Shown here piece after piece: positions 2,703 to 44,804 of a DNA stretch of 46,703 nt (positions are counted from its first letter, which is position 1; each line of letters opens with the position of its first letter). Origin of the DNA: an uncultured Bacteroidales bacterium (GTDB taxonomy: Bacteria; Bacillota_I; Bacilli_A; ML615J-28; CAG-698); the NCBI GenBank assembly GCA_964646985.1, contig CAZYFI010000002.1, forward strand, positions 1-46,703. The letters run 5' to 3'. The position numbers and the translations under genes are program-made. The notes below the pieces were generated by a model. The model was not told the DNA's origin, did not search any database, and saw only the letters and a program-made list of their open reading frames with translations.

Positions 2703-2909
2703 TTATCTTCCCGCAAAAAATATGAGCCACATGATGAAAGCAAGGGTCCCTAATACGCCAATGGTAGGTAATACAAACATTAGGAAAGCAGCAATCATCA
2801 TTGCTCCAAAATCCCCTTTTTCTAAAGGCGTTTCTCGCAAATTTTCGCGTGCTTTTTGCTCTTGCTCGGGCGTAAATTTAAGACGGTTTAATAGTTTCTG
2901 TTTCTTCAT
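2703..2909 (-). CDS. Hypothetical small membrane protein (68 aa: charged N-terminus plus one or two TM segments)
   Basis: ORF fills the oppF-spx gap. It has a hydrophobic C-terminal half (MMIAAFLMFVLPTIGVLGTLAFIMWLIFFA). No clear SD, and it overlaps the oppF 3' end by 32 nt. Confidence 0.4.
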   Translation of the reverse strand: MKKQKLLNRLKFTPEQEQKARENLRETPLEKGDFGAMMIAAFLMFVLPTIGVLGTLAFIMWLIFFAGR

Positions 2910-5034
2910 AGAAATGACATGCTACAAAGCGACCTGGTTCCACTTCGCGGAATTCAGGAACACGTTGAGCACACTCCTTACGAGCCAATGGGCAACGAGT
3001 TCTAAACTTGCAACCACTTGGTGGGAATACATTCGATGGAATGTCTCCGGCTAAGAAAATGCGTTGTTTTGTGCCCTGATCAGTAGTTGGAATTGCGGAA
3101 ATAAGGGCTTTTGTATAAGGGTGAAGCGGACGTTGATAAACTTCATCAGCATTACCTAACTCAACAATTTTACCCAAATACATGACACCAATACGGTCAC
3201 TAATATGTTTGATAACACTCAAATCATGAGAAATAAACAAATAGGTCAAATTCTCTTGATCGCGTAAATCTTCTAACAAATTGATGATTTGTGATTGAAT
3301 CGAAACGTCCAAAGCACTTACTGCTTCATCACAAACGATGAACTTAGGATTGACAGCCAAAGCTCTGGCAATACCAATTCTTTGGCGTTGACCACCAGAG
3401 AATTGATGTGGGTAACGATGCAACATATATGGTGCAAGTCCACATTTTTCCATTACTTCTAAGATGATATCTTGATAAGATTCTTTCACCTTATTCTCTA
3501 CATTGTGCGCTTTGAGTCCTTCTCCAATGATTTGTCCAACTGTTAAACGTGGATTCAATGAAGAATATGGATCTTGGAAGATTAATTGCATGTCTTGACG
3601 TAAGCGACGCATTTCTTCTGAGGTTAAGCGTGATAAATCAAGTCCTTTTTCTTTCTTTTCTTCCAACATTGCATACATTGGATGAGATGATACTCTTTCA
3701 TTCGCATCTTTAATGGATTGAGTAAGTTGTTTGCTTAATTCACTTAAACGATAATTATCAGTTTGCAACACTTCAATTTTTGCTTGTAGTTTTTCAATTC
3801 TTTCTTGAAAAACATCTTTTTGAAATTGGGTATATTTATCTGATTCATCTGCTAATTTTTGTTCTTGTTTGAATTTATTTACTTCTAGTATTTGCAACTT
3901 ATCACGATTGATTTGCATTTTGTGAAGAGCATCAATGTTTTTAAATAATGTTTTCGCGACTTCATCGATATCGTTAGATAAAATAAAGGCACCTGTAACA
4001 TTGGATGTTTTTTCTAATAATTTTTCGATTTTTTTGTTTAATCTAGCGATTTGTTTCTTTTCTTGTTCAAAATTATTAAAATCTTTTAACTTTTTGATTT
4101 GTTTTTGCTTTTCAAAGTGAATCAATTTTTGCGCAACAAGTTTTGAAAGAATCTCAGTATTTAATTCAATTGGTTTTTCCAAAAGCGATTTGATTCTAGC
4201 AATACTCTTAGAAACGTCATCTTTAATAATATTAATATTTTTTTGTGCTTCACGAATATCGATATCAACTTCAATAATATGACTTTGCGCTTTACGTTCT
4301 GCAATAGATAGTTTTTTATTTAAATCAGCAATTAAGTTTAAATCAGCGTTTTCAAGTTGTTTTCTAATTTTTGCAACTTCATTTTCTGCTTTTACATTTT
4401 TAATCTTTTTTTGCTTTTCTAATTCTTTTTCTAAATCTACAATTTTTAATTCTAGTTTTGCAATTTTTTCTTCACTTTTATAAATAAACTCATCTAACTT
4501 CAAAGCTTGTTTGATTGCTTTGATGTTATTAGATGAAAAGAAAGTCCCGCATTCATTACGACATTGATCAGCAATTACGTCACATTCACTTTGTAGTTTC
4601 GTGATTTCATTTTCATTTGCTTTACGTTTTTCTGCTAAAGTTTGATCATGCTTTTGCGCTTCAATTTTTTCCTCAATTTTTGGAACAGCAGTTGATAATC
4701 GTTCGTATTTTACACGCGAATTCTTTAAACGGTTGATTTCTTTAAAAAGATATCGTGGTGAATAATCTTCAAGAGTATATCCATAATAAATAATTTTCCC
4801 TGAAGTGATTGGATAAAGTTGCAATAATACGCGCCCCAATGTTGATTTTCCACAACCACTTTCTCCAACCAATCCTAGCGTTTCTCCTTTATGGATTACT
4901 AAATCAACGCCATCGTTGGCTTTTACTGTTAGTACTTCTCGCTGGAATAAACGGGTTTTTTTCAATGGAAAATATTTTTTCATGCCCACAATTTTAATTA
5001 GTGGTTCGTTTGTTAATACTTTACTTTTTCCCAT
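2878..5034 (-). CDS. oppF: Oligopeptide ABC transporter ATP-binding protein OppF with a coiled-coil insertion of about 385 aa
   Basis: Walker A GESGCGKST, Q-loop IFQDP, signature FSGGQRQR, Walker B FIVCDEA, H-loop ISHD, and C-terminal oligo_HPY motif HPYTKALISAIP. Start reassigned to ATG 5034 (MGKSKV...) behind RBS GAGGAG. The track ORF start at 5091 lies inside oppD. Confidence 0.85.
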   Translation of the reverse strand: MGKSKVLTNEPLIKIVGMKKYFPLKKTRLFQREVLTVKANDGVDLVIHKGETLGLVGESGCGKSTLGRVLLQLYPITSGKIIYYGYTLEDYSPRYLFKEINRLKNSRVKYERLSTAVPKIEEKIEAQKHDQTLAEKRKANENEITKLQSECDVIADQCRNECGTFFSSNNIKAIKQALKLDEFIYKSEEKIAKLELKIVDLEKELEKQKKIKNVKAENEVAKIRKQLENADLNLIADLNKKLSIAERKAQSHIIEVDIDIREAQKNINIIKDDVSKSIARIKSLLEKPIELNTEILSKLVAQKLIHFEKQKQIKKLKDFNNFEQEKKQIARLNKKIEKLLEKTSNVTGAFILSNDIDEVAKTLFKNIDALHKMQINRDKLQILEVNKFKQEQKLADESDKYTQFQKDVFQERIEKLQAKIEVLQTDNYRLSELSKQLTQSIKDANERVSSHPMYAMLEEKKEKGLDLSRLTSEEMRRLRQDMQLIFQDPYSSLNPRLTVGQIIGEGLKAHNVENKVKESYQDIILEVMEKCGLAPYMLHRYPHQFSGGQRQRIGIARALAVNPKFIVCDEAVSALDVSIQSQIINLLEDLRDQENLTYLFISHDLSVIKHISDRIGVMYLGKIVELGNADEVYQRPLHPYTKALISAIPTTDQGTKQRIFLAGDIPSNVFPPSGCKFRTRCPLARKECAQRVPEFREVEPGRFVACHFYEETETIKPS

Positions 5035-6019
5035 TATGTCTCTCCTCGATGTTCGGATAGAAACAGCGCACCGACTGAATGTCAGTAACATGAACTAAAT
5101 CTGGTTCTTCATTGATACATCTTTCCGTAGCATATTTGCATCTTGGTGCAAATTTGCATCCTTTTGGCAAATCAAGCGGATGGGGAACGGCGCCAGGAAT
5201 TGCTTCTAAGCGGTCTTTATCTGTTGATAAGCGGGGAATCGAAGTCATAAGACCTTCTGTGTATGGATGGGAGAATTTTCCAGTATCCGAAAATATCGTA
5301 CTAACCGGGGCTTTTTCTACAATCTCACCACAATACATAACAACAACATCATCCGCCATTTCATTAATAACACCTAAGTCATGGGTGATGAAAATAATTG
5401 ACATGTTCGATTCTTTTTTCAAATCATTCATTAATTTTAAAATTTGTGCTTGAATGGTAACGTCTAAAGCTGTGGTAGGCTCATCCGCAATCAAGATTCG
5501 TGGACGGCAAGCAAGTGCCATAGCAATCATAACCCTTTGACGCATCCCACCACTCAATTGATGTGGATATGTTTTTGCGACTTTTTCCGGGTTAGGGATG
5601 CCAACTTCACGAAGCAAATCAACGCTTTTCACATAGGATTCTTTTTTACTCATTCCTTGGTGAATTTGAAATACTTCACCAATTTGACGTTCTACCGTGA
5701 AAACAGGATTTAAAGAGGTCATGGGTTCTTGGAAAATGACAGATATTTTATTCCCACGAACATGTTGCATGGCTCTTTCGCTTACTTCAACTAAATTTGT
5801 TCCTTCAAGATAAATTTCACCTTGATCAATATAACCATTGCCATCGAGCAATCGCAGAATAGACATTGCGGAAACACTTTTTCCAGATCCACTCTCACCA
5901 ACAATGCCAAGAGTTCTTCCTTCATCAAGTGTATACGAAACACCATTCACAGCTTTTACTACACCGCGCTTGGTTTTAAAATATGTATGTAAATTTTTAA
6001 CTTCTAATAATAACGACAT
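5021..6019 (-). CDS. oppD: Oligopeptide ABC transporter ATP-binding protein OppD
   Basis: 332 aa. Walker A GESGSGKS, signature LSGGMRQR, Walker B ILIADEPTTALD, HPYTEGLMTSIP. RBS AGGAGG upstream. Confidence 0.9.
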   Translation of the reverse strand: MSLLLEVKNLHTYFKTKRGVVKAVNGVSYTLDEGRTLGIVGESGSGKSVSAMSILRLLDGNGYIDQGEIYLEGTNLVEVSERAMQHVRGNKISVIFQEPMTSLNPVFTVERQIGEVFQIHQGMSKKESYVKSVDLLREVGIPNPEKVAKTYPHQLSGGMRQRVMIAMALACRPRILIADEPTTALDVTIQAQILKLMNDLKKESNMSIIFITHDLGVINEMADDVVVMYCGEIVEKAPVSTIFSDTGKFSHPYTEGLMTSIPRLSTDKDRLEAIPGAVPHPLDLPKGCKFAPRCKYATERCINEEPDLVHVTDIQSVRCFYPNIEERHNGKK

Positions 6020-6028
6020 ATGGTCCTC

Positions 6029-8017
6029 CTACCTTTCTCTTGACCTTGGGTCAACAGCATCACGAATAGCATCGCCAATAATGTTAATGCTAATTGTAGA
6101 AATACACAAGAAAATGGATGGGAATACCCAGCGCCACCAAGCTGCTTTAATGACTGACATTTCTTGTGCTCCACTAAGCATGTTACCCCAAGAAGGAGCT
6201 GGTAATTGTACACCAAAGCCTAAGAAAGACAATCCTGATTCAGTCAGCAATGAGCTTGCATAACCTAAAGTTGCATTGATAATAATAATCGTAAGAACGT
6301 TAGGAATGATATGTTTGAATATAATTGCTCGGGATTTAACGCCCAATGCTTTCGCAGCAACTACGAACTCTTTTTCACGTTCAGACAAAATTTGAGCACG
6401 AATTAATTGCGCCAAACCTGTCCAACTTAGAACACCTAAGATTACCATGATCATAACCATTCTATCTGTGGTATCAAAATCAGCATTTGCTTGATTTAAG
6501 ATAACCGACAAGGTCATGGCCAACGGGAAGAAAGGAATGGAACCGACAATTTCTGCAAAACGCATCAATAAGATATCAACTTTTCCACCATAAAAACCAG
6601 AAATACCACCAACGATGATACCAATTGTTGTAGAAATAACAACGGCAACCAAACCAATTGTTAAGGAAATTCTTCCGCCATTTACAACACGGGCAAATAC
6701 ATCACGGCCATATTCATCAGTACCAAACAAATGTCCTTTGTGTCCATAAGCTCCTAGCAAATTGCCTTCAGCATCTGTTACAAAATTTTGGAAAAAGCTT
6801 GAATAAATATTAACCGCTTGGGTTCCTTCACTTAATTCTTTTGGAACATCTGTTGCTCCATAAGTATCATCACCCCAAGAATAAACAGATCCATCATCCA
6901 AAATTGCAGAGATGTGTTGATAATTATCTGAACCAACAGCTGTCTTAGAAATTTTAACTACTCTTCCTTGAATTGCAGGATCAAAGTCTAATTCTTTCGA
7001 TAGATTATCTCCCCATACAACAATGGTTCCGTCTTCCCTTAAAACAACAGCACTACCAGCAGTAGTAACAAGTTGCTTGCCTTTTGCATCAGGTCCTAGT
7101 AAGACTGCAGGAATATTGGTTGAAACAGAGCCTGTACCAACGACTTTCACTGTTCCGTCATCAAGTAAGAAAGTTATGTTTTCTCGAGAAAAGCCAGCAT
7201 AAACGGCCTTTTTCCCTACCAAAGCTTGTACTAAATTATAAGGTCGTTTCGAAGTGTTTCCCCACATGAATACGCGGTTTTTGTTAGTAATTACAATCGT
7301 AACTTGGTTTTCTGCAACTACTTCAAGAACGCCGCCATCATCTTCAATTGCCTTCACAACATTGACTGGAGAAACATATCCTTTCATAAGCAAACTAGTT
7401 GGAATGTTTGTAATGCCAAAAGAAATGGTCTCGGTCACCAAACCAAAAGAAATCAAAGAGCCGTCCATTTTTTCTAAAACAAAGTGTTCAGTTCCGGCCC
7501 AAACACGTTTTGCTTTTAAACCCACAGTAATTGCTTCACCTTTTTTAATATCATCTGGTGCTGCTCCGCCTGATGGAAATCCTTCAGCAATTTTATCGAC
7601 GTCTACACCCCAAATATAAACATTGTTTTCTTTATCAATGCCCATACTAAAAGTTGATGCAACAGCAATGTCTAAAATTCCATTTTCCTTTAGTTTATCT
7701 GGAACACTCAACATTGAAAATCCAGGACTAATATTTGCTTGTGTTTTATTCACATAATAGATATCTGCTTTGATAAAAAGACTTCCAACAAAACAAAATA
7801 ATAATACTGCTAAAAAGACGCTAAGCCCAATAATTGCAAGTTTGTTTTTTACAAACTTTTTCGCTGTTACTTTAAGAGGGCTTTGTACAGCTTCTTCTTC
7901 AAGAATCGTCATCTCTTTGTGTGTACCAAAAAAACTTCTGGAAAACATCGATTTGATTGCACGGCCAATAACGATAAATATCTCTTTTATGTTTTGAAAT
8001 AAATTTCTTTTTTTCAT
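6029..8017 (-). CDS. oppC: Oligopeptide ABC permease OppC with a large extracytoplasmic RCC1-like repeat insertion
   Basis: The C-terminal 230 aa or so is a canonical OppC/DppC membrane domain (GTDEYGRDVFARV..., EAA-type loop AAKALGVKSRAIIFKHIIPN). Residues ~83-430, after TM1, are extra (see findings). Confidence 0.85.
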   Translation of the reverse strand: MKKRNLFQNIKEIFIVIGRAIKSMFSRSFFGTHKEMTILEEEAVQSPLKVTAKKFVKNKLAIIGLSVFLAVLLFCFVGSLFIKADIYYVNKTQANISPGFSMLSVPDKLKENGILDIAVASTFSMGIDKENNVYIWGVDVDKIAEGFPSGGAAPDDIKKGEAITVGLKAKRVWAGTEHFVLEKMDGSLISFGLVTETISFGITNIPTSLLMKGYVSPVNVVKAIEDDGGVLEVVAENQVTIVITNKNRVFMWGNTSKRPYNLVQALVGKKAVYAGFSRENITFLLDDGTVKVVGTGSVSTNIPAVLLGPDAKGKQLVTTAGSAVVLREDGTIVVWGDNLSKELDFDPAIQGRVVKISKTAVGSDNYQHISAILDDGSVYSWGDDTYGATDVPKELSEGTQAVNIYSSFFQNFVTDAEGNLLGAYGHKGHLFGTDEYGRDVFARVVNGGRISLTIGLVAVVISTTIGIIVGGISGFYGGKVDILLMRFAEIVGSIPFFPLAMTLSVILNQANADFDTTDRMVMIMVILGVLSWTGLAQLIRAQILSEREKEFVVAAKALGVKSRAIIFKHIIPNVLTIIIINATLGYASSLLTESGLSFLGFGVQLPAPSWGNMLSGAQEMSVIKAAWWRWVFPSIFLCISTISINIIGDAIRDAVDPRSRER

Positions 8018-8020
8018 ATT

Positions 8021-9025
8021 TTACCCCAACTTAACCCTTGGATCAACAACAGTATAGAGCAAATCCAGTAATAAATTTCCAACTAATCCGAGCATTGTGT
8101 AAAACAAATTCATTGCTAGAATAACAGCATAATCTGGTCCTTGCATAAGGGCGTCATAGAGGGTTTTCCCCATTCCCTTCCAAGCGAAAATGGTCTCAGT
8201 AATAGTAGATCCACCAAATATTCCTAACATCCATCCAGTCATGATGGTAACAACAGGAATCATGGCATTACGAAAAGCATGAGAATAAATAACGACTTTT
8301 TCACGAAGTCCTTTTGCTCTTGCTGTTCGAATATAGTCTTGCGTTAAAATATCAATCATCGTACCACGTACATATCGGGTAATTCCCGCAAGAGATGATA
8401 CAGTCAATACAAACACTGGTAAAACCATGTATTTCAAATTATCTAAAAATCTTTGGAACCACGTCATTTGTTCGCGTAAAATGATTCCGGAATTGCTTCC
8501 GCTACTTGGTAAAATTCCTAACCAAGCTGAAAACACTAAAATTGAAATCAAGCCAACGAAAAAACTTGGAATCGACATTCCAACGATTGTGAAAACTTGA
8601 ACACCGTTATCAAAAGTTGAGTATTTTTTGACAGCCGTTTTAATTCCCAAAGGAAACGTAATGGCAAAAACACAGATAAGCACGAATACATTTAATTTAA
8701 TGGTGTTAACCATTGGTGCTTTAATATACCGTAATACTTCAACTCGACTTTGTAAAGTATAGCCAAAATTACCTTGCAATGTTTCTTTTAGCCACATGAA
8801 ATATTGAATAATCAATGGTTGACCAATACCCAAGTCAATTTGAGCTTGCTTAATCATTAACACATACAAATCAGGATCCGATTGTTTTAATGATTGGTCA
8901 ACATACGCCATAACTCTGGCCATATCACCACCAGGAATTGATTTATATAAGAAAAACAATATGACAGTAATTATAAATGCAACAAAGAAGATATATAAAA
9001 TTCTTTTTATAATATATCTAGACAA
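8021..9025 (-). CDS. oppB: Oligopeptide ABC permease OppB
   Basis: BPD_transp_1-type permease (TARAKGLREKVVIYSHAFRNA). The track ORF begins with TTG at 9046. However, AAGGAGG at 9032-9040 sits 6 nt before a second in-frame TTG at 9025 (MSRYIIKRILY...), which is the typical OppB N-terminus. The start is therefore uncertain between 9025 and 9046. Confidence 0.8.
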   Translation of the reverse strand: MSRYIIKRILYIFFVAFIITVILFFLYKSIPGGDMARVMAYVDQSLKQSDPDLYVLMIKQAQIDLGIGQPLIIQYFMWLKETLQGNFGYTLQSRVEVLRYIKAPMVNTIKLNVFVLICVFAITFPLGIKTAVKKYSTFDNGVQVFTIVGMSIPSFFVGLISILVFSAWLGILPSSGSNSGIILREQMTWFQRFLDNLKYMVLPVFVLTVSSLAGITRYVRGTMIDILTQDYIRTARAKGLREKVVIYSHAFRNAMIPVVTIMTGWMLGIFGGSTITETIFAWKGMGKTLYDALMQGPDYAVILAMNLFYTMLGLVGNLLLDLLYTVVDPRVKLG

Positions 9026-9043
9026 ACTAGTTTCCTCCTTTTT

Positions 9044-9077
9044 CAAAAATTAGGAGATTGGTGAAAACCAATCTCCT
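9044..9077 (-). terminator. Intra-operon hairpin between oppA and oppB (partial terminator or mRNA stabiliser)
   Basis: Perfect 11-bp stem aggagattggt (9052-9062) / accaatctcct (9067-9077) with a GAAA-type 4-nt loop. On the minus strand it is followed by AAUUUUUG. Confidence 0.6.
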
Positions 9078-9105: not shown

Positions 9106-11523
9106 TTATCCTTCAATAGTTGCGTATAATACGGCTTCGGTTAATGTCCATTCAGCTGTTACATCATAGTTCTTTAGCTTAGGAGAATAGAAAGCGTGAT
9201 ACATATCAGAATACAATGGTAATGATGGTAACAAGATATTAAATCTTAATTGATATTGTTGCCAAGCTTCTAGGTATTCTTGATCATCAGCAGCTCTCAT
9301 CATTTTTAAAGCAGCATCAAGCATTTCTTGATCGAATAAATAGTTGATATTTGCGCCGCCGTCCCAGCCCCAATACTCAATAGAAACATCATAGTAAGGT
9401 TCAAATAAACCAGTATTGAAACCTGTACCTAAGTTAACCATATGGTATTCACGAGCGTCTGTTTCAGTTGCTTCGTATGCAGGGATATCTGCAACTGTCC
9501 ATTTGCCATCGCCATCTTCATCTTTTGGTAAGCCGTAGCCATCGCCATCAGCGCCATAATAATGAGTGTATAACAATGTGTTGAAATCCATTGGTTGATC
9601 TTTAATTTCCATACCAACTGCTTTTGCATTTGGTAATAATTGAGCACGAATTAAGTCAGATACTGGGTTACCAGTTGTATTTGCCCAAGGAACTGTTAAT
9701 TTTACAAGTTCTGTTCCGACTAATTTGTAACGAACTGAACTTCCATCAGCAGCTTGAACATATGCGCCACCAGTAGCATTCTTATTCCAACCAGCTGCTT
9801 CAAGTAATTGAACAGCTTTTGCTGGATCATAACTATATGAATTTAATGCAACTAGATTGCCATCTTTGTCACGGCCTTGTACAACGCCGTTTTCATCTTC
9901 AGATGCGCCAACCATCCATTGTGCTAAACCATATTGTCCATTAGGTAATACACCATATCCACGAGTGTATGTCTCTAAGAATAAGTTACGATTAATTAAG
10001 TAAGCAATTGCTTGACGAACTTCTACATCTGCTGTAGGTCCAGAAGGTGCATCACAGTGGAATGCAATGTGTCCGAAACCATTACGAGAGAATGTTGAGA
10101 AGTTAATATTGCCATAAGCAACTTCTTGTAATCCAGAAATGATAGCATCGCCACCAGAAACTGATTCAATGATGTCAATTTCGCCATTCAATAATGCTTG
10201 CATTTGTGTTGCAGTTGTAACATATTTGAACACGATATTGTCAATGTCTGGTTTTTGACCTTGATAGTCACCAACAAATTTGTCATTGATTTTTAAAGTA
10301 GCTGTTGAAGTTGATTCATCAAAATCATATAAAGAGTAAGGGCCGCAAGTAACACTAATGTCATAGCGGTATCCAGCGCCGTCTTTATCAACAGTTGCTG
10401 CTAAAGCTTCAGCTGTCCAAGTGCCAGAAATCTTCGCACCATTTGTTCCTTGTACTACATCAGCAGCTGGAGCAATGACATGCATTGGCCATGGAGCTGC
10501 AGAATAGTATAAGAACTCATAGTAGTAAGGGAAACGATCTGCGTTGATTGAAATTGAGAATTTATGTGTTCCAAGTAAATCAACACCAGCTAATTCAGCT
10601 AAACCATCAGCATTTTTAGCTGGGTCAGCAAAATCTTTACTACCAACGATATCACCAGTAGTAGTCAATGCTTTACCAATTGCTGTAGCAAATACAGGGT
10701 TAATTGATAATAACATTGGGAATACATAGTCTTTCGCATCAATTGCAGTTCCATCATTCCATACTAAACCTTCATTGATTTCGATTGTATAAGTCTTTGA
10801 TCCATCAGTGTTTTCAGTTACAACAAAGTCTTTTACAACGGTTGGGTCAATCATGTAACGAGCTGCTTCTTTTTGATAAGATACAGTTCCGTACCCAAAT
10901 GTTAATGAACGAATATCAGCATTAGTAGCATTGTTGCCCCAGAATGTTGAGAACATATTAACACCAGCTTCAGTAGTAGAGCCAACTGTTAATGTAGTTA
11001 ATGCTTTTACAGTTACAACTTTAGTTTGTTGTCCTACGCCAGCAAGTGCACAAGTAATTGTTGCAGTTCCGGCTTTCAAACCAGTAACAACACCGTTTGC
11101 AACGGTTGCAACAGTAGCATCGCTTGAAGTCCATGTGAATGCAGGTGATGGCTTATCTGTTGTAGCAGTCAAAGTCAATGTTTTACCAACTTTAACTGAA
11201 CTGTCTCCAGCTAAACTGAAATTGAATTCAGTAACAGAGATAATTATAGTTTTTTCGCCAACGCCTTCAACGCTAACAGTAATAACTACTTCACCAACGG
11301 CAACGCCAGTTACAACGCCGTTATTAACTGTAGCTCGAGCAGTATTGCTTGAAGTCCAAGTAAAGACTGCTTCTGGCTTTTCAGTCACAGGAACTAAAGT
11401 GATTGTTTCTCCGACTTTTACGGTTTGTGGGCCTGAAAGAGAAAGAGTATACGTCTCTTCTTTACAGCCAACAAAAACTAACGCAAGAGCCAAAAAGAAA
11501 ACTAAACTTAAGAATTTTTTCAT
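9106..11523 (-). CDS. oppA: Lipoprotein, family-5 solute-binding protein (OppA-like) with two N-terminal Ig-like (Big_2-like) domains
   Basis: Signal peptide and lipobox LVFVGC. Two units of about 75 aa match each other (…VKVGETITLVPVTEKPEAVFTWTSSNTARATVNNGVVTGVAVGEVVITV / …VKVGKTLTLTATTDKPSPAFTWTSSDATVATVANGVVTGLKAGTATITC). These are followed by an SBP_bac_5-like body of about 620 aa. It is the first gene of the opp operon. Confidence 0.8.
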   Translation of the reverse strand: MKKFLSLVFFLALALVFVGCKEETYTLSLSGPQTVKVGETITLVPVTEKPEAVFTWTSSNTARATVNNGVVTGVAVGEVVITVSVEGVGEKTIIISVTEFNFSLAGDSSVKVGKTLTLTATTDKPSPAFTWTSSDATVATVANGVVTGLKAGTATITCALAGVGQQTKVVTVKALTTLTVGSTTEAGVNMFSTFWGNNATNADIRSLTFGYGTVSYQKEAARYMIDPTVVKDFVVTENTDGSKTYTIEINEGLVWNDGTAIDAKDYVFPMLLSINPVFATAIGKALTTTGDIVGSKDFADPAKNADGLAELAGVDLLGTHKFSISINADRFPYYYEFLYYSAAPWPMHVIAPAADVVQGTNGAKISGTWTAEALAATVDKDGAGYRYDISVTCGPYSLYDFDESTSTATLKINDKFVGDYQGQKPDIDNIVFKYVTTATQMQALLNGEIDIIESVSGGDAIISGLQEVAYGNINFSTFSRNGFGHIAFHCDAPSGPTADVEVRQAIAYLINRNLFLETYTRGYGVLPNGQYGLAQWMVGASEDENGVVQGRDKDGNLVALNSYSYDPAKAVQLLEAAGWNKNATGGAYVQAADGSSVRYKLVGTELVKLTVPWANTTGNPVSDLIRAQLLPNAKAVGMEIKDQPMDFNTLLYTHYYGADGDGYGLPKDEDGDGKWTVADIPAYEATETDAREYHMVNLGTGFNTGLFEPYYDVSIEYWGWDGGANINYLFDQEMLDAALKMMRAADDQEYLEAWQQYQLRFNILLPSLPLYSDMYHAFYSPKLKNYDVTAEWTLTEAVLYATIEG

Positions 11524-11575: not shown

Positions 11576-11604
11576 ATTATACACATCGAAAGGAAAGGTG
11601 TCAA
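11576..11604 (-). promoter_or_regulatory. SigA-type promoter of the opp operon
   Basis: On the minus strand, TTGACA (11604-11599), a 17-nt spacer, then TATAAT (11581-11576). This is an exact consensus. Confidence 0.7.
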
Positions 11605-11743: not shown

Positions 11744-11749
11744 GATAAC

Positions 11750-11968
11750 TATAAACAATGATAAGGAATAGTATAGTGTTTGCCTCTTTGTAAAGCGAGT
11801 GTTGGATCGTGAAAGCAACGCCAAAAGCCCACTAGAATGGACCTTAGAGTGCAATGAAGAAATGCATTGACGTTTTGTTCGCGTTAAGAACTTTGAGTGT
11901 ATTGTTAACAATAAACTAAGGTGGTACCGCGGAATATTTCGTCCTTAATTCAATTAAGGACTTTTTTT
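11750..11968 (+). promoter_or_regulatory. T-box riboswitch leader, Trp specifier (UGG)
   Basis: Conserved T-box sequence AAGGTGGTACCGCGG (11919-11933). Terminator gtccttaatt/aattaaggac (11941-11961) plus a T-run. Stem-I GA/AGTA elements (gataaggaatagta). Candidate specifier GAA-UGG-A at 11838-11840. Confidence 0.85.
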
Positions 11969-11980
11969 ATTGGAGGATAT

Positions 11981-12973
11981 ATGAATATTATTTTATCAGG
12001 CGTTAAGCCCACAGGAATTCCAACTTTAGGCAACTATTTGGGTGCTTTAAGAAATTTTGTTAAGTTCCAAGACAAAATGAAGGACTATGATTTCTTTATT
12101 TTTGTTGCCGATTTGCACGCCATTACAACCCCACAAGATGCAACAGTGTTGAAGCAAAACATCAAAAATGTAGCAGCCCTCTATTTGGCTTGTGGTTTAA
12201 AACCCGAAAGACTCACATTGTTTATACAATCAGAAGTAAAAGAACATGCGGAACTTGCTTATATCATGCAATCGCTTGTGTATATGGGTGAATTAGAACG
12301 TATGACCCAATACAAAGATAAAATGGCAAAGCAAGTCCAAGGAGTTAGTGCGGCTTTGTTTACTTACCCTGCCCTCATGGCAGCTGATATTTTGCTTTAC
12401 GATGCAAAATTTGTACCCGTTGGCGAAGATCAAAGACAGCATTTAGAGTTAGCAAGAGACCTTGCCATTCGTTTTAACAATCGTTTTGGAAATACCTTTG
12501 TGGTTCCGGATGGACTCATTCAAGAAAAAGGAGCTAGGATCAAAGATTTGCAAGATCCTACCAAAAAGATGGATAAATCTGCTGATAATGATCGTGGTTG
12601 CATTTATCTTCTGGAACCTTTATCACAAGTGCGTAAAAAAATCAAATCTGCTGTAACAGATAGCGAAGCTCAAGTTCGCTATGACCTAGAAAACAAACCA
12701 GGAATCGCTAACCTAATGACCATATATTCTGTGATCACTGAGATGTCTTTCTCTGATATTGAAACAAAATATCAAAATAAAGGATACGGAGACTTCAAAG
12801 GTGATCTTGCAGAAATTGTTGTAAAAGAAATAGAAGGCATTCAAAATCGCTATCAATATTACATTCATTCTCAAGAATTAGATCAACTGCTAAATGCAGG
12901 AAGAGCCAAAGCTTCGCTATTGGCAAGTAAGAAAATAGCTCAAGTTTATAACAAAATGGGACTTGGACGTTAA
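11981..12973 (+). CDS. trpS: Tryptophan--tRNA ligase
   Basis: Collinear with B. subtilis TrpRS (GVKPTG..TLGNYLGA, VPVGEDQRQHLELARD, KKMDKS). True start is ATG 11981 behind GGAGG. The track start at 11921 (GTG) lies inside the T-box sequence. Confidence 0.95.
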   Translation: MNIILSGVKPTGIPTLGNYLGALRNFVKFQDKMKDYDFFIFVADLHAITTPQDATVLKQNIKNVAALYLACGLKPERLTLFIQSEVKEHAELAYIMQSLVYMGELERMTQYKDKMAKQVQGVSAALFTYPALMAADILLYDAKFVPVGEDQRQHLELARDLAIRFNNRFGNTFVVPDGLIQEKGARIKDLQDPTKKMDKSADNDRGCIYLLEPLSQVRKKIKSAVTDSEAQVRYDLENKPGIANLMTIYSVITEMSFSDIETKYQNKGYGDFKGDLAEIVVKEIEGIQNRYQYYIHSQELDQLLNAGRAKASLLASKKIAQVYNKMGLGR

Positions 12974-13055: not shown

Positions 13056-13976
13056 TCATAGAAAACCAATAATCTCTTGGTAAGTTGGCAAAGCATCAAT
13101 CGCTCCTTTTTTTGTAGTCGTCAATGCTCCCGAAATGTTTCCAAATCGTAACAGTTGTTTAATTTGCCAATCAGATAAAGAACGAATATCTTTTTGATCA
13201 AGATTTGCTAAAACACCAGCATAGAAAGCATCTCCAGCTCCTGTTGTATCAAAGGACTTGACTACAATGGAAGATTCCTTGATTAATCGGTTGTTTCTAA
13301 AAAAGACGGAACCTTCTTTCCCAAGAGTCAAGAAAATCGTTTGATTTGGCCGAGCTATTTTTTTCAATCCCTCTTCATAATTAGCGTCTTGAGTAAAAAG
13401 GGTTAATTCGTCTTGTGATAGCTTTAGAAAATCAGCTAAACAAGCATAAGATTGATAAATTTCGATGGCCGTCTTTTGATTTACGAACAAATCATCTCGA
13501 AAATTGACATCAAAGCTTAGTAATTGGTGATTGTCTTTCACAGTTTGGATAATCTGATCAGCCAACTTTCTCCCTTTTGGTTCGCTTAACATGAGGGACC
13601 CCAAATGAACAATGTTTGCTTTTTTTAATTGAGCAAGACTGGTTTTAGGAATATGAAAATCAGCGGTATTATGACGATAAAAACTAAAATGGCGTTCACC
13701 GTCTTCATCATTTGCAACAAAAGCAAGAGTCGTATTATGCTTTGAATCTTCTGTAAGACAAAGATTGGAAAACGAAATAGTTGAAGCAAATTTTTTTAGG
13801 AATTTTCCCATTAAATCCACGCCAACATTGCCAATAAATCCGACCTTTCCGCCGAATTTCGCAATCCCGCAAGCAACATTAAAAGGTGCTCCCCCGGCAA
13901 AAGATTCGTATGTAACTGTTTGCTTGTTCTTGTTTCCAATTAAGTCAACGAGAATTTCTCCGATGCACACAATCAT
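13056..13976 (-). CDS. Fructokinase (PfkB family sugar kinase)
   Basis: 306 aa. N-terminal GEILVDL...FAGGAPFNVA and the C-terminal PfkB ATP motif DTTGAGDAF. Sits in the fructan locus. Confidence 0.85.
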   Translation of the reverse strand: MIVCIGEILVDLIGNKNKQTVTYESFAGGAPFNVACGIAKFGGKVGFIGNVGVDLMGKFLKKFASTISFSNLCLTEDSKHNTTLAFVANDEDGERHFSFYRHNTADFHIPKTSLAQLKKANIVHLGSLMLSEPKGRKLADQIIQTVKDNHQLLSFDVNFRDDLFVNQKTAIEIYQSYACLADFLKLSQDELTLFTQDANYEEGLKKIARPNQTIFLTLGKEGSVFFRNNRLIKESSIVVKSFDTTGAGDAFYAGVLANLDQKDIRSLSDWQIKQLLRFGNISGALTTTKKGAIDALPTYQEIIGFL

Positions 13977-13986
13977 AATCGTTTCC

Positions 13987-14949
13987 TCAAGTTGTTTCTC
14001 CTAATATAAAATTCGTCGGAACAAAGGTAAATACTTCGGATGGTTCGTTGTTCATCCTTTGAATTAACTGGTTAACTATTGCCACCGCCAAAGCTTCGAT
14101 GTCTTGCTTGACGACGGTAAATTTAGGATGTTGTAATATTTCGTCCATCACGCCATCAAAGGAAATAATTTTAATGTCTTCCGGGACTCTTTTTTCAAAT
14201 TGAAGGGCAATTTGAAAACAAGTGTTTGCGAAAGTATCGCTTTGAGCAAAAATGCCATCTAGCGTCGGGTTGTCTTGCAAAAATTTCTTTGCCACCACAA
14301 ACTCTTCGCCGTGATATATATTTTTGTAACATGATGTTGGTTCCATGTTGTATTTTTGCATAACATCTAAATAAGCAAAATAACGTTTTTGGGTCTCCGA
14401 AGGGGCACTTGACATCCCACCAATGTAACCGATATGTTTACAGCCCTTTTGAACAAGATGTTCAATGGCCTTAAATGTGCTTTCATAGTTATCGCTAGTT
14501 ACACAAGGAACATTATCTAGATGACGATCCAAAGTCACAATATTTAAACCTTGAAAATCAATATCTTGGTATAGGTGGTTGGTAATAAAAATGATCCCAT
14601 CTACTTGTCCGGTTTTAATCATGTTCAACAAATGGATTTCTTTATCTCTTTTTCCTTGAGAACTAACAATAATCATTTTAAACCCTTTTTGATACAAATA
14701 ATCCTCAATGTAAAAAGCAATTTTGCTAAAGAAAACGTGACTAATGGTCGGAACAAATAAGGCTACCAACCCCGATCGTTTGGCTTGCAAGTTTCGCCCC
14801 AATTGATTGGGGATATATTTTAAATCTTTGATGGCATCTTCGATTTTTTTTCGCGATTCCTCAGAAACATAACCATTGTTGTTGATGTACCGAGAAACCG
14901 TCCCAATGCCCACCCCAGCACGTTTGGCGACTTCTTTCATTTGGGCCAT
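13987..14949 (-). CDS. LacI-family transcriptional regulator of the fructan locus
   Basis: HTH MKEVAKRAGVGIGTVSRYINN plus a periplasmic-binding-protein-like effector domain. Start set to ATG 14949 (MAQMKEV) behind AGGAG. Confidence 0.85.
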   Translation of the reverse strand: MAQMKEVAKRAGVGIGTVSRYINNNGYVSEESRKKIEDAIKDLKYIPNQLGRNLQAKRSGLVALFVPTISHVFFSKIAFYIEDYLYQKGFKMIIVSSQGKRDKEIHLLNMIKTGQVDGIIFITNHLYQDIDFQGLNIVTLDRHLDNVPCVTSDNYESTFKAIEHLVQKGCKHIGYIGGMSSAPSETQKRYFAYLDVMQKYNMEPTSCYKNIYHGEEFVVAKKFLQDNPTLDGIFAQSDTFANTCFQIALQFEKRVPEDIKIISFDGVMDEILQHPKFTVVKQDIEALAVAIVNQLIQRMNNEPSEVFTFVPTNFILGETT

Positions 14950-15039
14950 AATTAATACTCCTAACAAAATAAATTTCTTAACTTATTATATCACTATCAA
15001 GAACATTTTTAGCAGATGTTTTCAAATTTTTGTATAAAA

Positions 15040-15087
15040 AGTAGTTCTTTCACAATACTTTTTTTATGCATTCATGAAAGAACTACT
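15040..15087 (-). terminator. Terminator of the fructan operon
   Basis: 13-bp stem agtagttctttca (15040-15052) / tgaaagaactact (15075-15087). On the minus strand it is followed by UUUUAU. Confidence 0.6.
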
Positions 15088-15104
15088 TGATGAATCAATT
15101 GAAA

Positions 15105-17852
15105 TCATCCAACCAATTGATTGGCGATTGTTTGCCATGGAATGTTGTGACTGCGTTCAACGGTCCATTGATCAGAAGCATCTTTGCTGTATAAAGTAAC
15201 CGTGTCAAATCCGTTAGCGATATCTGGAGTAACGGCATAATACGTAGTTACAGCATCAAAGAAAGCAACTGCCCAACCAGCAACTTCAATGTCACAAAGT
15301 TCAAGGTATAATTCTTGACCTAAGTAAGCACTTAAATCAATGAAATATGTTCCCATATCCGCCCAAGAGCCACCAGCATCAACATTAGGGAAATTGGTGT
15401 CGCTAAAACGGTTTTGCTTGTATAAGCCTATTTGAGTGCCATCAGCTTGATATACTTTAACAGCTGCGGCATTTCCGCCCATTTTCACAGAAATAAATCC
15501 TGTTCCATGAAGAGTGAAATTAGTGGAACGCAATGAATATTGTTCGCCTTCTGCAACGCCTGAAGTCCAACCATCAAAATGATAATTGCCACTTTGGTTA
15601 TAAGGAAGTTTTTCATTCCAATAATGTGTCATATTGATGATAGCATTAACAGTAACTTTTTCTGAAGTCCACCCTGTCATATCTCCGGTTTCAAAACCGC
15701 CATTGATAACAACACCATTATTTGCCATTTCCCAAACAATATTAACATTTGGTTCTTGAACCGAATCTTTTGTGGATCCAGCCACCGTATCAAACCCGTT
15801 CGCAACATCTGGAATAGCAGTATGATAGAAATTAATATCATCAAAGAAAGCAACTGCCCAACCAGCTGTAGCTGGATCATCAATCAATTCAACATAGACT
15901 TTTTCGCCTAAATATGCTGATAAATCTGCAAAATAGCGTGTCATGGTTGCCAAACGGCCACCGTTTGCTAAATAAGGGAAATCAAAATCTTTAAATCGAT
16001 AATTAGTGAAGTACCCAATAACGGTTCCATCTTCCAACACAACTCTAACTGCGGCAGCTTTGCCACCCATCATAAACGAAGCCCAACCTGTTCCAGATAA
16101 AGTGAACAATCCAGAACGAAGGGTATAGCCAGCTCCTTCATTAGATGTAGCTGTCCAACCATCAAAGTGATAACTTCCTTGCTGGTTATAAGCTATTTTT
16201 TCACCCCAGAAAGTTTCTGCATTTAAAGCCCCATTGGCGATTTCACCAGAAACAACTGTCCAACCGGTCATATCTCCAGTTTCAAAGCCACCATTGGCAA
16301 CATTGGTACTAGCCGATACAACAACATTGAAAGTACTAGTGACGGTTTCGCTTTCATAAGTCGCTCCATAATGAACGACATAAGTTCCTTCTTGATTAAA
16401 ATCAAAAGCATCAAATCCGGTTGTAAACTCGGTTTCGCCTAAAACAACTTTGGTAATAACAGCCGGTACGGCAGTTTCACCATAAGAAATAACGACATCA
16501 TCCATTAATGCGGTCAAATCATAATCATCAACCAAGGCTGTTACAAAGCCTTCAGCTTCTGTTTCAATCATTAAAGCTGGCAATTCAAATGGATAATCAT
16601 AATTGGTGTAGTAATCTTGCAAATGAGCAAGCGAATTATATGAATCAGTATATGTTTCTGCCATAATCGCTTGATAAGTAGATTTCATTAACGCTTTTAC
16701 TTCGGCTTCAGTCATGCTGACACGGAAATCATCAGCATTAATAAATGCAAATCCGCTACTTGGATTGTTATCCACAATCGAAAGATAGAGAACATCGCCA
16801 AGATAATCTGATGCATCAACATACACACGACGTAATGTCAAAGGCAACCCTGGATCGTTAAAAGTCGTATTCGTAACGGTGATTAATTCTGCATCCGTTG
16901 TTCCGTCATTAATCGAAATATAACAATTAGTTGGTCCTGCACCAATCATAAACGAAATCCAACCATCACCCGCTAATGTAAATTTTGTGGAACGAATCGC
17001 GCCAACTGCTGATTCTGCCGTTGCCCCGTTGTTGTTTCCATCTAAATAATAATCCCCTTCGCCATATACCAAACGATCTGTCCAGTAATATTGCGTAGTT
17101 GGTACAACAACCGTTCCGCCAAATGCTGTTCCGCTTAATTGTTTCCAGCCAGTTAAATCACCTGCTTCAAATCCACCATTGTTGATGGTTGTTGAAGTAG
17201 GATCTTCTTCAAATTCTGGTTCGCCATAAGCTTCGATTTGAGCATCTCGCTCTGTTTGGAAAGCCGTAACTTCGGCTTCTGTCAAGCAAACTACAAAATC
17301 ATCTAAATTAACATAACCATAATCATCGGTATTATCACTATCCGTCACTTTGATGTAAATGACTTTATTTAAGTGTGCTGATAAATCAACGATTTTGCGA
17401 ATCATTTGATCAGTGATATATGGTTCATTGTAATCAGTGTTTGATACTTTTAATAGCGCAGTATCATTGTCTTTTTCAAAGAATTCTACAAAGATCTTAT
17501 CTTGATTCTTTCCAGCTCCCATTTTGAAAGCAATCTTTCCAGTTCCTGTTAATTGGAAGAAATCGGAAGTCAGTGTTCCCACCATTTTTTGGGTTCCGCC
17601 ATCGGTACCACTAAACCAAAATTCACCGGTTTTATCAACCGTAATTCCATTCACTTTTACATCATTCACAATTCCTCGAGGACTAAACGCAGTTTCTGTT
17701 TTCGTCCATCCCGTCCAAACTTCTGCAGTTCCAAGCTCAAATCCACCATTGGTGATTTGGGTTGGATACTCTTCTTTTTTACCACATGCTGCTAACAACA
17801 TTAACGATAGTGTTAGCGTCACTACAAAGGTAAAACGCAACCATTTTTTCAT
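15105..17852 (-). CDS. Large non-catalytic surface lipoprotein with four CBM-like beta-sandwich modules (putative fructan-binding protein)
   Basis: Lipobox LLAAC. Four modules of about 155 aa each open with NGGFE(x)G(x)(x)(x)GW, at about aa 33-188, 222-378, 518-676 and 715-872. No GH32 catalytic motifs. Co-operonic with the GH32 genes. Confidence 0.75.
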   Translation of the reverse strand: MKKWLRFTFVVTLTLSLMLLAACGKKEEYPTQITNGGFELGTAEVWTGWTKTETAFSPRGIVNDVKVNGITVDKTGEFWFSGTDGGTQKMVGTLTSDFFQLTGTGKIAFKMGAGKNQDKIFVEFFEKDNDTALLKVSNTDYNEPYITDQMIRKIVDLSAHLNKVIYIKVTDSDNTDDYGYVNLDDFVVCLTEAEVTAFQTERDAQIEAYGEPEFEEDPTSTTINNGGFEAGDLTGWKQLSGTAFGGTVVVPTTQYYWTDRLVYGEGDYYLDGNNNGATAESAVGAIRSTKFTLAGDGWISFMIGAGPTNCYISINDGTTDAELITVTNTTFNDPGLPLTLRRVYVDASDYLGDVLYLSIVDNNPSSGFAFINADDFRVSMTEAEVKALMKSTYQAIMAETYTDSYNSLAHLQDYYTNYDYPFELPALMIETEAEGFVTALVDDYDLTALMDDVVISYGETAVPAVITKVVLGETEFTTGFDAFDFNQEGTYVVHYGATYESETVTSTFNVVVSASTNVANGGFETGDMTGWTVVSGEIANGALNAETFWGEKIAYNQQGSYHFDGWTATSNEGAGYTLRSGLFTLSGTGWASFMMGGKAAAVRVVLEDGTVIGYFTNYRFKDFDFPYLANGGRLATMTRYFADLSAYLGEKVYVELIDDPATAGWAVAFFDDINFYHTAIPDVANGFDTVAGSTKDSVQEPNVNIVWEMANNGVVINGGFETGDMTGWTSEKVTVNAIINMTHYWNEKLPYNQSGNYHFDGWTSGVAEGEQYSLRSTNFTLHGTGFISVKMGGNAAAVKVYQADGTQIGLYKQNRFSDTNFPNVDAGGSWADMGTYFIDLSAYLGQELYLELCDIEVAGWAVAFFDAVTTYYAVTPDIANGFDTVTLYSKDASDQWTVERSHNIPWQTIANQLVG

Positions 17853-17865
17853 TTTTCTCTCCTTT

Positions 17866-19899
17866 TTATTTATTTACTAAAATATCATATTTATTGACTT
17901 GTTTTAAACTATAGCTGAACTGTATTATACATTTTTGATCAGGGTAAACATTTCCCGTCATTGTCATATAACCATCATTGATGAATACTTCAACACTTGA
18001 TACATCTAAAAATATGCGTAATTTTAAAATCCCGTTATGAAGTACTACGTCAACATTTCGCGTTGAACGGTTCATTTCCGCACCGCTGATGGTCTTTCCA
18101 GAATTACTACGATCAAAGACAACTGTTTGTGATAGAGCATCATAATAAACAAGCGTTTCATTGGCTTCACCCTTAAATAGTTTAACGCCTACTTTGGATG
18201 ATGAGCCAACTTCGATTTCCAGTTCTAATTCTACGGTTTTTCCCGAAATTTGCGGAAGTGTCAAACTTCCATTAACTGTTTTGTTCTGGTAACTAACCGC
18301 ATTGGTCCGATAATCGATGATTTCGCGAACCGGAGTTTGATAAACATGGCCATCTTGATAAGTCAATTCTCTTGGCAAAGTATAAGCACCAACCCAATTA
18401 TGGGCTTGTGTGACCAAAGTCCGATCCCACATTTGCATCCAAGCAAGCATAATCGTTCTTCCATCCGGTGTTTGCATCGTTTGGGCGGCATAAAAATCAA
18501 AGCCTCCATCAAACTCAACAAATTCATCATAATCATAACGCCCACTCTGATAGTCCATTTCACCAACCATGTAAACAACCGAATGAATGTTTTCAAATTG
18601 ATTGCCCTCTTTCGGAAGGTTCTGTGGACTAACAATTAGAATTTCTTGCCCATCGATTGTTACAAAGTCCGGGCACTCATAAACTCCAGATAATTGTAAA
18701 AAATGAGGAGCTAGCGGATTATGATTGTTCATGACTTTTCCTACATAATCCCAACTAGTAAGGTTGGAAGAGCGATATAGAACAATCATTCCATAACCAT
18801 TGGCTTTGGTTCCGATGAGGCAATAATAATAACCGTCATGATAAAACACTTTCGGATCACGGAAATCCGCAGTCGATACCCCAGAAGGCACTTCAATCGT
18901 GGATATTACCGGATTGCGATTCAATTTTTCAAAATTAATTCCGTCCTCTGAAACTGCTAGATTTTGCGTCTGCTGATTATTGGCTACACCTGTATACATT
19001 AAGTACAATTTTCCATCTTTTTCAATGGCAGTGCCGCTAAAGCATCCCAAATCCTGATCATAATCTTGATCCGGTGCTAACGCCACGGGTTGTAATTCCC
19101 ATTTTACAAAATCTTTGGTCGTATAATGACCCCAATGCATTGGTCCCCAACTGCTGGCATAAGGATTAAACTGATGAAACAAATGGCCTTCGCCATTGAA
19201 CCAAATTAACCCATTCGGATCATTACTCCAACCGATTGGCGATATAGCATGGTAAGTATGTCGATAGGTTGGGTTAACTGTATTTAAATTTTCTAGAACA
19301 TATTGATATGCGTCGTATACTTTTCCCACTTGATCTTCAACTCCTTGGTAATTTACAATAAAATCATCAACATTGATATAATTGTAATCATCGATTTTGC
19401 TATCATTATCAATCACTTTTATTTGAACAGTTTTTCCTAGATGTGCACTGGCATCAATTATGACGCGGTGCAAAGTATTCGGGCTACTTTCATCAAAATC
19501 GCTGTTCGCACGAATAGCGAGTTCGTTTCCTCGTGAATCAATTAAGGCCACATAACACAATGCGTTGTTTTTTGCTCCACTTAACAAAAAACCGATTTTT
19601 CCGTTTCCCTTTAATTTAAATTTTTCGCTAAGCATAAATCCGGTTTTACTGAAACCGGCTTTTTTCCCATAAAAGAGAAATTCGCCAGCTTGGTTAAATC
19701 GTTCGCCGTTTTCATCTTTATCATTAAGGACAATACCCGAGTTTGAAAAAGCATCTCCGCTTGTTTCCCAACCTTTTAGAGTCCCGCTTTCAAAACTGGC
19801 ATTTAAAAAAGTATATTCACCCGCAACTGTACTCGTGCATCCCCCCAAAGCTAAAGTGATGGCGAAAAGAATTGCGCTCACAATCCACTTATTTTTCAT
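17866..19899 (-). CDS. GH32 beta-fructofuranosidase lipoprotein (exo-type motifs) with an N-terminal CBM-like module
   Basis: Lipobox LALGGC. N-terminal module of the same family as modules 1-2 of the 915-aa protein (…INVDDFIVNY). GH32 motifs WSNDPNG, FRDPKVF and YECPDF. Confidence 0.85.
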   Translation of the reverse strand: MKNKWIVSAILFAITLALGGCTSTVAGEYTFLNASFESGTLKGWETSGDAFSNSGIVLNDKDENGERFNQAGEFLFYGKKAGFSKTGFMLSEKFKLKGNGKIGFLLSGAKNNALCYVALIDSRGNELAIRANSDFDESSPNTLHRVIIDASAHLGKTVQIKVIDNDSKIDDYNYINVDDFIVNYQGVEDQVGKVYDAYQYVLENLNTVNPTYRHTYHAISPIGWSNDPNGLIWFNGEGHLFHQFNPYASSWGPMHWGHYTTKDFVKWELQPVALAPDQDYDQDLGCFSGTAIEKDGKLYLMYTGVANNQQTQNLAVSEDGINFEKLNRNPVISTIEVPSGVSTADFRDPKVFYHDGYYYCLIGTKANGYGMIVLYRSSNLTSWDYVGKVMNNHNPLAPHFLQLSGVYECPDFVTIDGQEILIVSPQNLPKEGNQFENIHSVVYMVGEMDYQSGRYDYDEFVEFDGGFDFYAAQTMQTPDGRTIMLAWMQMWDRTLVTQAHNWVGAYTLPRELTYQDGHVYQTPVREIIDYRTNAVSYQNKTVNGSLTLPQISGKTVELELEIEVGSSSKVGVKLFKGEANETLVYYDALSQTVVFDRSNSGKTISGAEMNRSTRNVDVVLHNGILKLRIFLDVSSVEVFINDGYMTMTGNVYPDQKCIIQFSYSLKQVNKYDILVNK

Positions 19900-22280: not shown

Positions 22281-22289
22281 TTTTCCCTC

Positions 22290-24644: not shown

Positions 24645-24651
24645 CACTTCT

Positions 24652-25575: not shown

Positions 25576-25582
25576 TATCACC

Positions 25583-26515: not shown

Positions 26516-26529
26516 TGTTCACCTCTATT

Positions 26530-27879: not shown

Positions 27880-27958
27880 CCTTTCTGTTGTCATTAAAAA
27901 TGAGAAAATAGTTTGTTTCATGATTATGTTTTGAAACATCTAGAATTTGCATTCTATA

Positions 27959-35118: not shown

Positions 35119-35135
35119 ATATCCTCCTTTAAACA

Positions 35136-35328: not shown

Positions 35329-35330
35329 CT

Positions 35331-44797: not shown

Positions 44798-44804
44798 TTA
44801 TGAC

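Follow-up and report, generated by a model that had tools for sequence, protein, structure and literature searches.

In type I ATP-binding cassette (ABC) importers, the recognition of substrates is generally assigned to a binding protein apart from the permease, and folded extracytoplasmic domains within their permeases are, to our knowledge, rare, with MalF-P2 as the textbook case. What, then, might a large folded domain be doing inside the permease of a peptide importer? This question is raised by an opp cassette in contig CAZYFI010000002.1 (assembly GCA_964646985.1), which we analyzed over positions 1 to 46,703; this whole stretch of 46,703 nucleotides is referred to below as the window. 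The gene in question, oppC (6029..8017, minus strand), encodes an OppC-type permease of 662 amino acids (aa). About 345 of its residues lie in the loop between the first and second transmembrane helices (TM1 and TM2), where E. coli OppC has about 20 in the alignment with chain 8z21_B. We find that the insert is predicted to fold as a beta-propeller on the outer face of the importer, and we weigh what such a domain may be for.

A beta-propeller within an OppC-type permease

The membrane core of the oppC product is readily recognized. In Pfam, residues 46-98 match OppC_N (PF12911; 33.2 bits against a cut-off of 23.9) and residues 466-660 match BPD_transp_1 (PF00528; 109 bits, E=2e-31); an EAA-type coupling motif, EFVVAAKALG...IIPN, can be read off the translation of the core. 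Among the sequences of solved structures (phmmer, PDB), E. coli OppC (8z21_B) aligns with E=2.5e-51 over query residues 426-660 (chain 79-302), with 41% identity and a TM-score of 0.74 over the TM2-TM6 core, and TM1 aligns as well (query 51-80, chain 29-58). The membrane part of the structural model described below finds DppC/OppC chains of the PDB in Foldseek at E ~1e-15 and TM-scores of 0.72-0.75. These matches bear out the original prediction, made from the letters of the window alone, that the 662-aa product is an OppC permease. None of the named NCBIfam equivalogs (Opp4C, OppC, DppC, and others) is reached by the protein: the best, Opp4C, gives 321 bits against a cut-off of 350, and the others fall far under theirs. 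Judged by these searches, it belongs to the OppC/DppC superfamily but lies outside every named NCBIfam equivalog.

Known OppC/DppC proteins belong to importers of the Opp/Dpp type (PepT family), including E. coli OppBCDF (8z21) and DppABCDF (8z1v-8z1z) and M. tuberculosis OppABCD (8j5q). The window protein shares with them the OppC_N TM1, the BPD_transp_1 core, the GTDxxGRD motif, the EAA-type motif, and an operon with OppA, OppB, OppD, and OppF. Unlike them, it carries a seven-bladed propeller at the site of the ~20-residue TM1-TM2 loop, and its cassette adds a sixth gene, which encodes a small tail-anchored protein.

Four parts can be told apart along the gene, all on the minus strand. Residues 1-82 (7772..8017) form a basic cytoplasmic N-terminus and TM1 (OppC_N; LAIIGLSVFLAVLLFCFVGSLFI, residues 60-82), as assigned by Pfam, AlphaFold2, and a count of charges. 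Residues 83-112 (7682..7771) are a linker from TM1 to the first blade, with the pattern TQxNxxPG...VP..L, recognized by its conservation and a predicted local distance difference test (pLDDT) of 85-96. Residues 113-424 (6746..7681) make up the seven blades, and residues 425-662 (6029..6745) comprise the junction YGxKGxLxGTDxxGRD and the TM2-TM6 core, for which Pfam, the PDB, and Foldseek agree. The insert as first described, residues ~83-430 between TM1 and GTDEYGRDVFARV (residues 432-444), maps exactly to 6728..7771, between TM1 and the GTDxxGRD motif.

The insert itself is built from repeats. Seven motifs that had been quoted as blade ends all lie at the places given for them, residues 133, 188, 249, 290, 332, 378, and 420, with a spacing of 41-61 aa. 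RCC1_2 repeats are matched in the insert with E=8.9e-15 (Pfam; 54.4 bits against a cut-off of 22), and the RCC1-like domain PF25390 matches residues 108-388 with E=5.4e-22 and 79 bits, which is below its very strict curated cut-off of 150. Against the PDB sequences (phmmer), the insert matches BLIP-II with E=8e-12, and also HERC1/2, RPGR, and UVR8. We modeled the oppC product with AlphaFold2 using a 49-sequence alignment. In the model (mean pLDDT 87.9; predicted TM-score, pTM, 0.80), TM1 is a helix at residues 58-80, seven groups of beta-strands lie within residues 113-424, mostly at a pLDDT of 85-97, and TM2 starts at residue 439. A Foldseek search of the PDB with the modeled insert returned BLIP-II (TM-score 0.70-0.75), UVR8, the RCC1-like domains (RLDs) of HERC2, RPGR, and RCC1, with a probability of 1.00. 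Given the RCC1_2, PF25390, PDB-sequence, AlphaFold2, and Foldseek results, the repeats go far beyond chance, and the insert is, as modeled, a complete seven-bladed RCC1-like beta-propeller. Pfam, AlphaFold2, and Foldseek have thus each returned the RCC1-type fold that the original prediction had proposed.

Like the known RCC1-like domains (RCC1, the HERC2 RLDs, RPGR, UVR8, and especially BLIP-II), the insert is seven-bladed, with repeats of the RCC1_2 type (WG, G..H, DG), but its sequence identity to them is only 15-20%. It also differs from them, BLIP-II included, in that it is not free-standing but inserted into a polytopic membrane protein, and sits extracytoplasmically on an importer. The relation to RCC1 is one of fold only, and Ran-type guanine-nucleotide exchange is implausible for an extracytoplasmic bacterial domain. 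BLIP-II is secreted as a soluble propeller and uses defined Trp-rich loops to bind class A beta-lactamases. The oppC propeller resembles it in fold and repeats only and, being embedded in a membrane protein, is not filed here as a BLIP-II-type inhibitor. The most variable elements of the propeller are its D-A loops (conservation 0.22), which carry lineage-specific inserts. In two relatives, P0016 (L005:7001-9700) and P0013, the D-A loop between blades IV and V holds an A/E/K-rich segment of 100-250 aa that probably forms a coiled-coil hairpin, a would-be extracellular stalk.

On which side of the membrane does the propeller lie? Residues 1-57 contain 12 K/R against 5 D/E, and the insert contains 32 K/R against 43 D/E, which makes its net charge -11. 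The solved E. coli DppBCDF/DppABCDF structures show the TM1-TM2 regions of both DppB and DppC on the periplasmic side (PMC12136057). Because of this charge bias, read by the positive-inside rule, and the homology to solved OppC/DppC, we place the propeller on the extracytoplasmic side, where the original prediction had also put it. The structural identity of the propeller and its outside location are, taken together, almost certain. It is vanishingly improbable that the open reading frame (ORF) is an artefact, a mis-assembly or a chimeric gene call, or that the insert is cytoplasmic: the same architecture is found in the complete genomes of isolates (Sedimentibacter sp. zth1, CP071445, and Alloiococcus sp. 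CFN-8) and in independent assemblies that number in the hundreds, and both the topology arguments and the confident single-chain model speak against it.

The propeller is at the pseudo-symmetric counterpart of the DppB scoop, the element that contacts the binding protein. The scoop is likewise a TM1-TM2 periplasmic region, that of the partner permease; it enters the cleft of DppA and has been proposed to seal the cavity (PMC12136057). Whereas the DppB/OppB scoop is a helix-loop-helix of ~30 residues, the window oppC gains a whole extra domain. The OppB of the window (341 aa; 8021..9046, minus strand), an Opp4B-like permease (E=1e-72) with a BPD_transp_1 match at E=1e-34, retains at residues 10-93 the usual BPD_transp_1_N match (Pfam), which covers the TM1-TM2 region that bears the scoop in DppB, and the propeller therefore adds to the normal docking apparatus and does not replace it. 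Some relatives of OppC have other inserts at the same TM1-TM2 site: loops of 73-119 aa and, in P0104 (L087:2504-4582), a domain of ~390 aa that has no Pfam match and for which a single-sequence AlphaFold2 run reached a pLDDT of only 38.6. The TM1-TM2 loop of the OppC family seems to be an insertion hot spot.

Distribution and descent of propeller permeases

Using one junction motif, we scanned a single representative genome for each GTDB species, which gives a lower bound, and found that at least 370 Bacillota species genomes, across several orders, encode a propeller-OppC relative; the design is not rare. Carriers include Pseudoflavonifractor capillosus ATCC 29799, Gemmiger formicilis, Subdoligranulum, Fournierella, and Ruthenibacterium among the Oscillospiraceae; Eisenbergiella, Roseburia, and Oliverpabstia among the Lachnospiraceae; and further Christensenella, Erysipelotrichaceae, Sedimentibacter, and the Bacilli/Tenericutes group of the window. 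Gemmiger, Subdoligranulum, Pseudoflavonifractor, Eisenbergiella, and Roseburia are abundant gut genera, and several carriers have been cultured. The closest relatives are metagenome-assembled genomes labelled Bacilli or Tenericutes. The architecture is represented by more than 100 protein clusters at 90% identity, with lengths of 545-899 aa.

In the databases, the homologues bear generic names only, such as 'ABC transporter permease subunit' or 'peptide/nickel transport system permease protein', and our literature search found no paper on a propeller within an ABC importer permease. The propeller-OppC is widespread, with its sequences already public, and uncharacterized in the literature, in line with the original prediction, which knew of no described permease of this kind. 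In Sedimentibacter sp. zth1 (L001), two full propeller-type opp cassettes stand in tandem and are followed by a third, plain opp operon.

The available sequences point to one coherent Bacillota clade of propeller-OppCs that goes back to a single old insertion. We draw this from the membrane-domain identities and from the nearest relatives of the insert. Over the membrane domain, the sampled propeller forms are 50-98% identical to the window protein, except for P0102 at 37%, and plain OppCs are 39-45% identical. When the insert alone was the query of a word-indexed search, every one of its nearest relatives proved to be an OppC fusion. An exhaustive search with the insert alone gave 15,479 matches, in a list dominated by giant multi-repeat RCC1 proteins whose scores sum over many repeats, and this number is unfit for sizing the OppC-fusion family.

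Candidate roles of the propeller

RCC1-like propellers are interaction scaffolds, not enzymes, and propellers typically serve as interaction modules. The reading that we favor, with a probability of roughly 35%, is that the oppC propeller is a docking or retention platform for OppA. Fixed on the outside next to where the lipoprotein OppA docks, the propeller would serve as a platform for interaction; there it would hold or orient OppA, or help to seal the delivery cavity, like MalF-P2 for MalE, and the canonical scoop region of OppB would serve substrate hand-over. We infer this role from the insertion site, the MalF-P2 precedent, and the rigid, conserved junctions.

Among the relatives of oppC, Q93, P98, and P106 of the linker are invariant and the mean conservation of the linker is 0.60, equal to that of the beta-strands; the YGxKGxLxGTD junction, at ~0.6 or above, is also on par with the strands. 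Since the linker and the junction are conserved like strands and the pTM of the whole chain is high, the propeller appears to be rigidly mounted. MalF-P2 of the maltose importer MalFGK2 is also a folded extracytoplasmic domain built into the permease of a type I importer; it binds MalE (Kd 7-22 uM) and remains attached to it throughout the cycle (PMC6906923). In contrast to the propeller, MalF-P2 has an Ig-like fold of ~185 aa and lies between TM3 and TM4 of a permease from another family, so that the likeness is an analogy and no homology is expected.

We looked at co-variation within the cassette by a mirror-tree analysis of 70 cassettes, in which a partial r was computed after removing the shared signal. 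All parts of the cassette co-vary, with r 0.87-0.97, as expected within one operon, and the partial r recovers known contacts, OppA-OppB at 0.56 and OppD-OppF at 0.59. For the propeller, its own membrane domain gives the highest partial r, 0.39, ahead of OppF (0.33) and OppB (0.25).

Several observations weigh against a platform for OppA. The specific co-variation of the propeller with OppA is almost nil, with a partial r of 0.09, below the values for OppB and OppF. A conserved non-structural surface patch, sought by the conservation of loop classes, was not found; the conserved positions are mostly the generic WG, G..H, and DG. In addition, the decorations of OppA vary by clade, and no fixed feature of OppA is paired with the propeller. 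The OppA of the window (805 aa; 9106..11523, minus strand) is a lipoprotein substrate-binding protein with a signal peptide, a lipobox (FVGC), two N-terminal stretches matching Big_2 (Pfam, E=7e-12), and an SBP_bac_5 core (E=1e-40); its best solved relative is the OppA 9p48_A (E=3.5e-26). The original prediction had raised a link between the propeller and such an Ig-decorated OppA. This link does not hold: no Big_2 match is on record in six cassette OppAs read by Pfam (619-757 aa), a count that includes two from the clade of the window with long OppFs (L004 and L005) and excludes its nearest relatives L008-L010, whose OppAs are also ~805 aa.

The same correlations, strongest with the membrane domain of oppC itself and then with OppF, would suit a propeller whose role is mainly structural or steric and that has no specific ligand. 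It might stabilize OppBC together with the small tail-anchored protein encoded at 2703..2909, or it might keep polymers of the wall or capsule off the docking site. The rigid and conserved junctions agree with such a role, and the other OppC inserts at the same site, both the loops of 73-119 aa and the ~390 aa of P0104, indicate that this loop tolerates decorations. Yet a domain of 310-600 aa that is found across at least 370 species in several orders would be a costly passive spacer, and propellers are usually interaction modules. We consider a purely structural role quite improbable; if the propeller were a passive decoration, the finding would stay a curiosity of domain architecture.

The lack of specific co-variation between propeller and OppA would also fit a built-in receptor for a different secreted or surface protein, such as an envelope protease, a peptidase, or an enzyme like a penicillin-binding protein, which would physically couple the production of peptides to their uptake. 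The model here is BLIP-II, which clamps enzymes of the beta-lactamase fold with one face of its propeller and is the closest solved relative of the insert both by sequence (E=8e-12) and by fold (TM-score 0.70-0.75). No other parts of the cassette evolve as fast as the propeller and the OppA core, whose mean p-distances are 0.50 and 0.48; the ATPases and the membrane core stand at 0.24-0.27. Within the propeller, the fast-evolving D-A loops and their lineage-specific inserts, such as the hairpins of P0013 and P0016, would suit a variable external partner. A gene for a 2512-aa protein resembling an envelope protease (Peptidase_S8/PA) adjoins one related cassette with a plain OppC. However, the likeness to BLIP-II lies in generic RCC1 repeat positions, with the interface residues outside the comparison, and no candidate partner gene recurs beside the cassettes. 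A receptor for a protein other than OppA is, in our view, unlikely.

The one gene that does recur beside the cassettes bears on the cargo. When we clustered the flanking ORFs of all loci, the sole recurrent neighbor was an M3 oligoendopeptidase directly upstream of oppA, present at 30 loci among L012-L040 and L050-L085 (for example, L022:2628-4430 and L062:2931-4655). At 22 Oscillospiraceae-type loci, this gene is PepF proper (TIGR00181, 649 bits against a cut-off of 490); at 8 loci of the Lachnospiraceae type and others, it belongs to a different M3 subfamily (TIGR02289, 570-605 bits against a cut-off of 442). M3 oligoendopeptidases are known as cytoplasmic enzymes, and they (PepF) act on oligopeptides, not on di- or tripeptides. 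Because two different M3 subfamilies are found at the same place, a functional link to oligopeptide import is indicated, and the cargo of the propeller-type Opp importer is most likely oligopeptides.

Might the propeller bind this cargo itself? It could act as a second site for the capture or pre-concentration of, for example, long oligopeptides, or as a lid that holds back released peptide, partly independent of OppA. The neighboring M3 enzymes, which by family assignment act on oligopeptides, are consistent with this idea, as is the position of the propeller at the site symmetric to the DppB scoop, the proposed seal of the cavity (PMC12136057). Beta-propellers in general frequently take up ligands, either on one face or within the central channel (PMC3797127). 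Against cargo binding, the conservation analysis yielded no pocket-like set of conserved non-structural residues. The order oppA-oppB-oppC(propeller)-oppD-oppF is nearly invariant in 86 related loci, and every cassette among them retains a full-size OppA and a normal OppB, leaving canonical capture intact. We know of no RCC1-like domain that binds free peptides as cargo. Direct binding of cargo is, to us, also an unlikely reading.

A broader proposal is that the propeller is a second receptor, borne by the permease, for a partner or cargo of its own, for instance a protease on the surface, a signaling peptide, or a substrate that is a protein or a long peptide, and that together with the small subunit it would define a distinct class of Opp importer. 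We would be rather surprised if this were so. If it is true, the membrane domain shares in selection, which would then not be the task of the soluble binding protein alone. Should the propeller hold OppA in place or recruit a partner, models of peptide uptake, and possibly of peptide signaling, would change in the carriers.

Other genes of the cassette and the window

The small tail-anchored membrane protein (68 aa; 2703..2909, minus strand) is encoded by an ORF that overlaps the end of oppF, and has the motif LEKxDxxAMIIAA ahead of a single TM helix. Homologous small ORFs, with the motif LEKxDxxAM(I/L)(I/L)AA and one C-terminal TM helix, come directly after oppF in 70 related loci; the protein has no Pfam or NCBIfam match. 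Diverged small ORFs also end related cassettes that have no propeller (L087:6814-7098 and L089:9738-9986), which rules out the small protein as a partner specific to the propeller. Because similar ORFs occur in cassettes without a propeller, the small protein marks a wider Opp subgroup, of which it is probably an unrecognized sixth subunit or an assembly factor. This small membrane protein of the cassette had previously gone unnoticed.

Both ATPases of the window cassette are encoded downstream of oppC on the minus strand. OppD (332 aa; 5021..6019) has an oligo_HPY C-terminal region with four cysteines (Pfam). OppF (737 aa; 2878..5091; possible true start M20) matches ABC_tran in two stretches as well as the OppF families, and has a K/E/L/I/Q-rich insert of ~375 aa, probably a coiled coil, that separates Walker A (residue 76) from the Q-loop (residue 504); OppD has only 54 residues there. 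The insert resembles the long OppF of Mollicutes (NCBIfam MMSYN1_0168). The length of OppF differs by clade: it is ~336-340 aa in the Oscillospiraceae type and 480-540 aa elsewhere, and lengths of ~716-737 aa are confined to the clade of the window, with clade-specific inserts of 0, ~150-200, or ~380 aa. A link between the propeller and a long OppF, which the original prediction had raised, is ruled out, as OppF length follows the clade and is normal in the Oscillospiraceae-type loci. The four cysteines in the oligo_HPY C-terminal regions of OppD (5021..5200) and OppF (2878..3060), e.g., CKFAPRCKYATERC...C, resemble the [4Fe-4S] sites of E. coli DppD/DppF (PMC12136057).

A sigma-70-type promoter, TTGACA-17-TATAAT (11576..11604, minus strand), lies 52 nt upstream of the oppA start; it was found by pattern match only, with 12 of 12 positions matching. 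Between oppA and oppB there is a hairpin with a T-run (9052..9077, minus strand; 11-bp stem, 5 GC pairs), possibly a partial terminator that would give an excess of oppA over the downstream transcripts. Control of the opp operon by a T-box was ruled out: the T-box at 11749-11949 lies on the opposite, plus strand, as the leader of the divergent gene for a class Ib tRNA synthetase (11921..12973). Two further T-box leaders, both on the minus strand, lie at 35157-35335, upstream of tyrS (33859..35136), and at 44572-44802, upstream of a gene for a PALP-family enzyme (43289..44464).

The remainder of the window holds housekeeping genes and a fructan-utilization locus (13056..27939, minus strand). 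This locus encodes three GH32 enzymes, two of them with Laminin_G_3, a sugar ABC importer (SBP_bac_1 and two permeases), a LacI regulator, a PfkB kinase, and a 915-aa protein (15105..17852) in which Pfam finds no domain.

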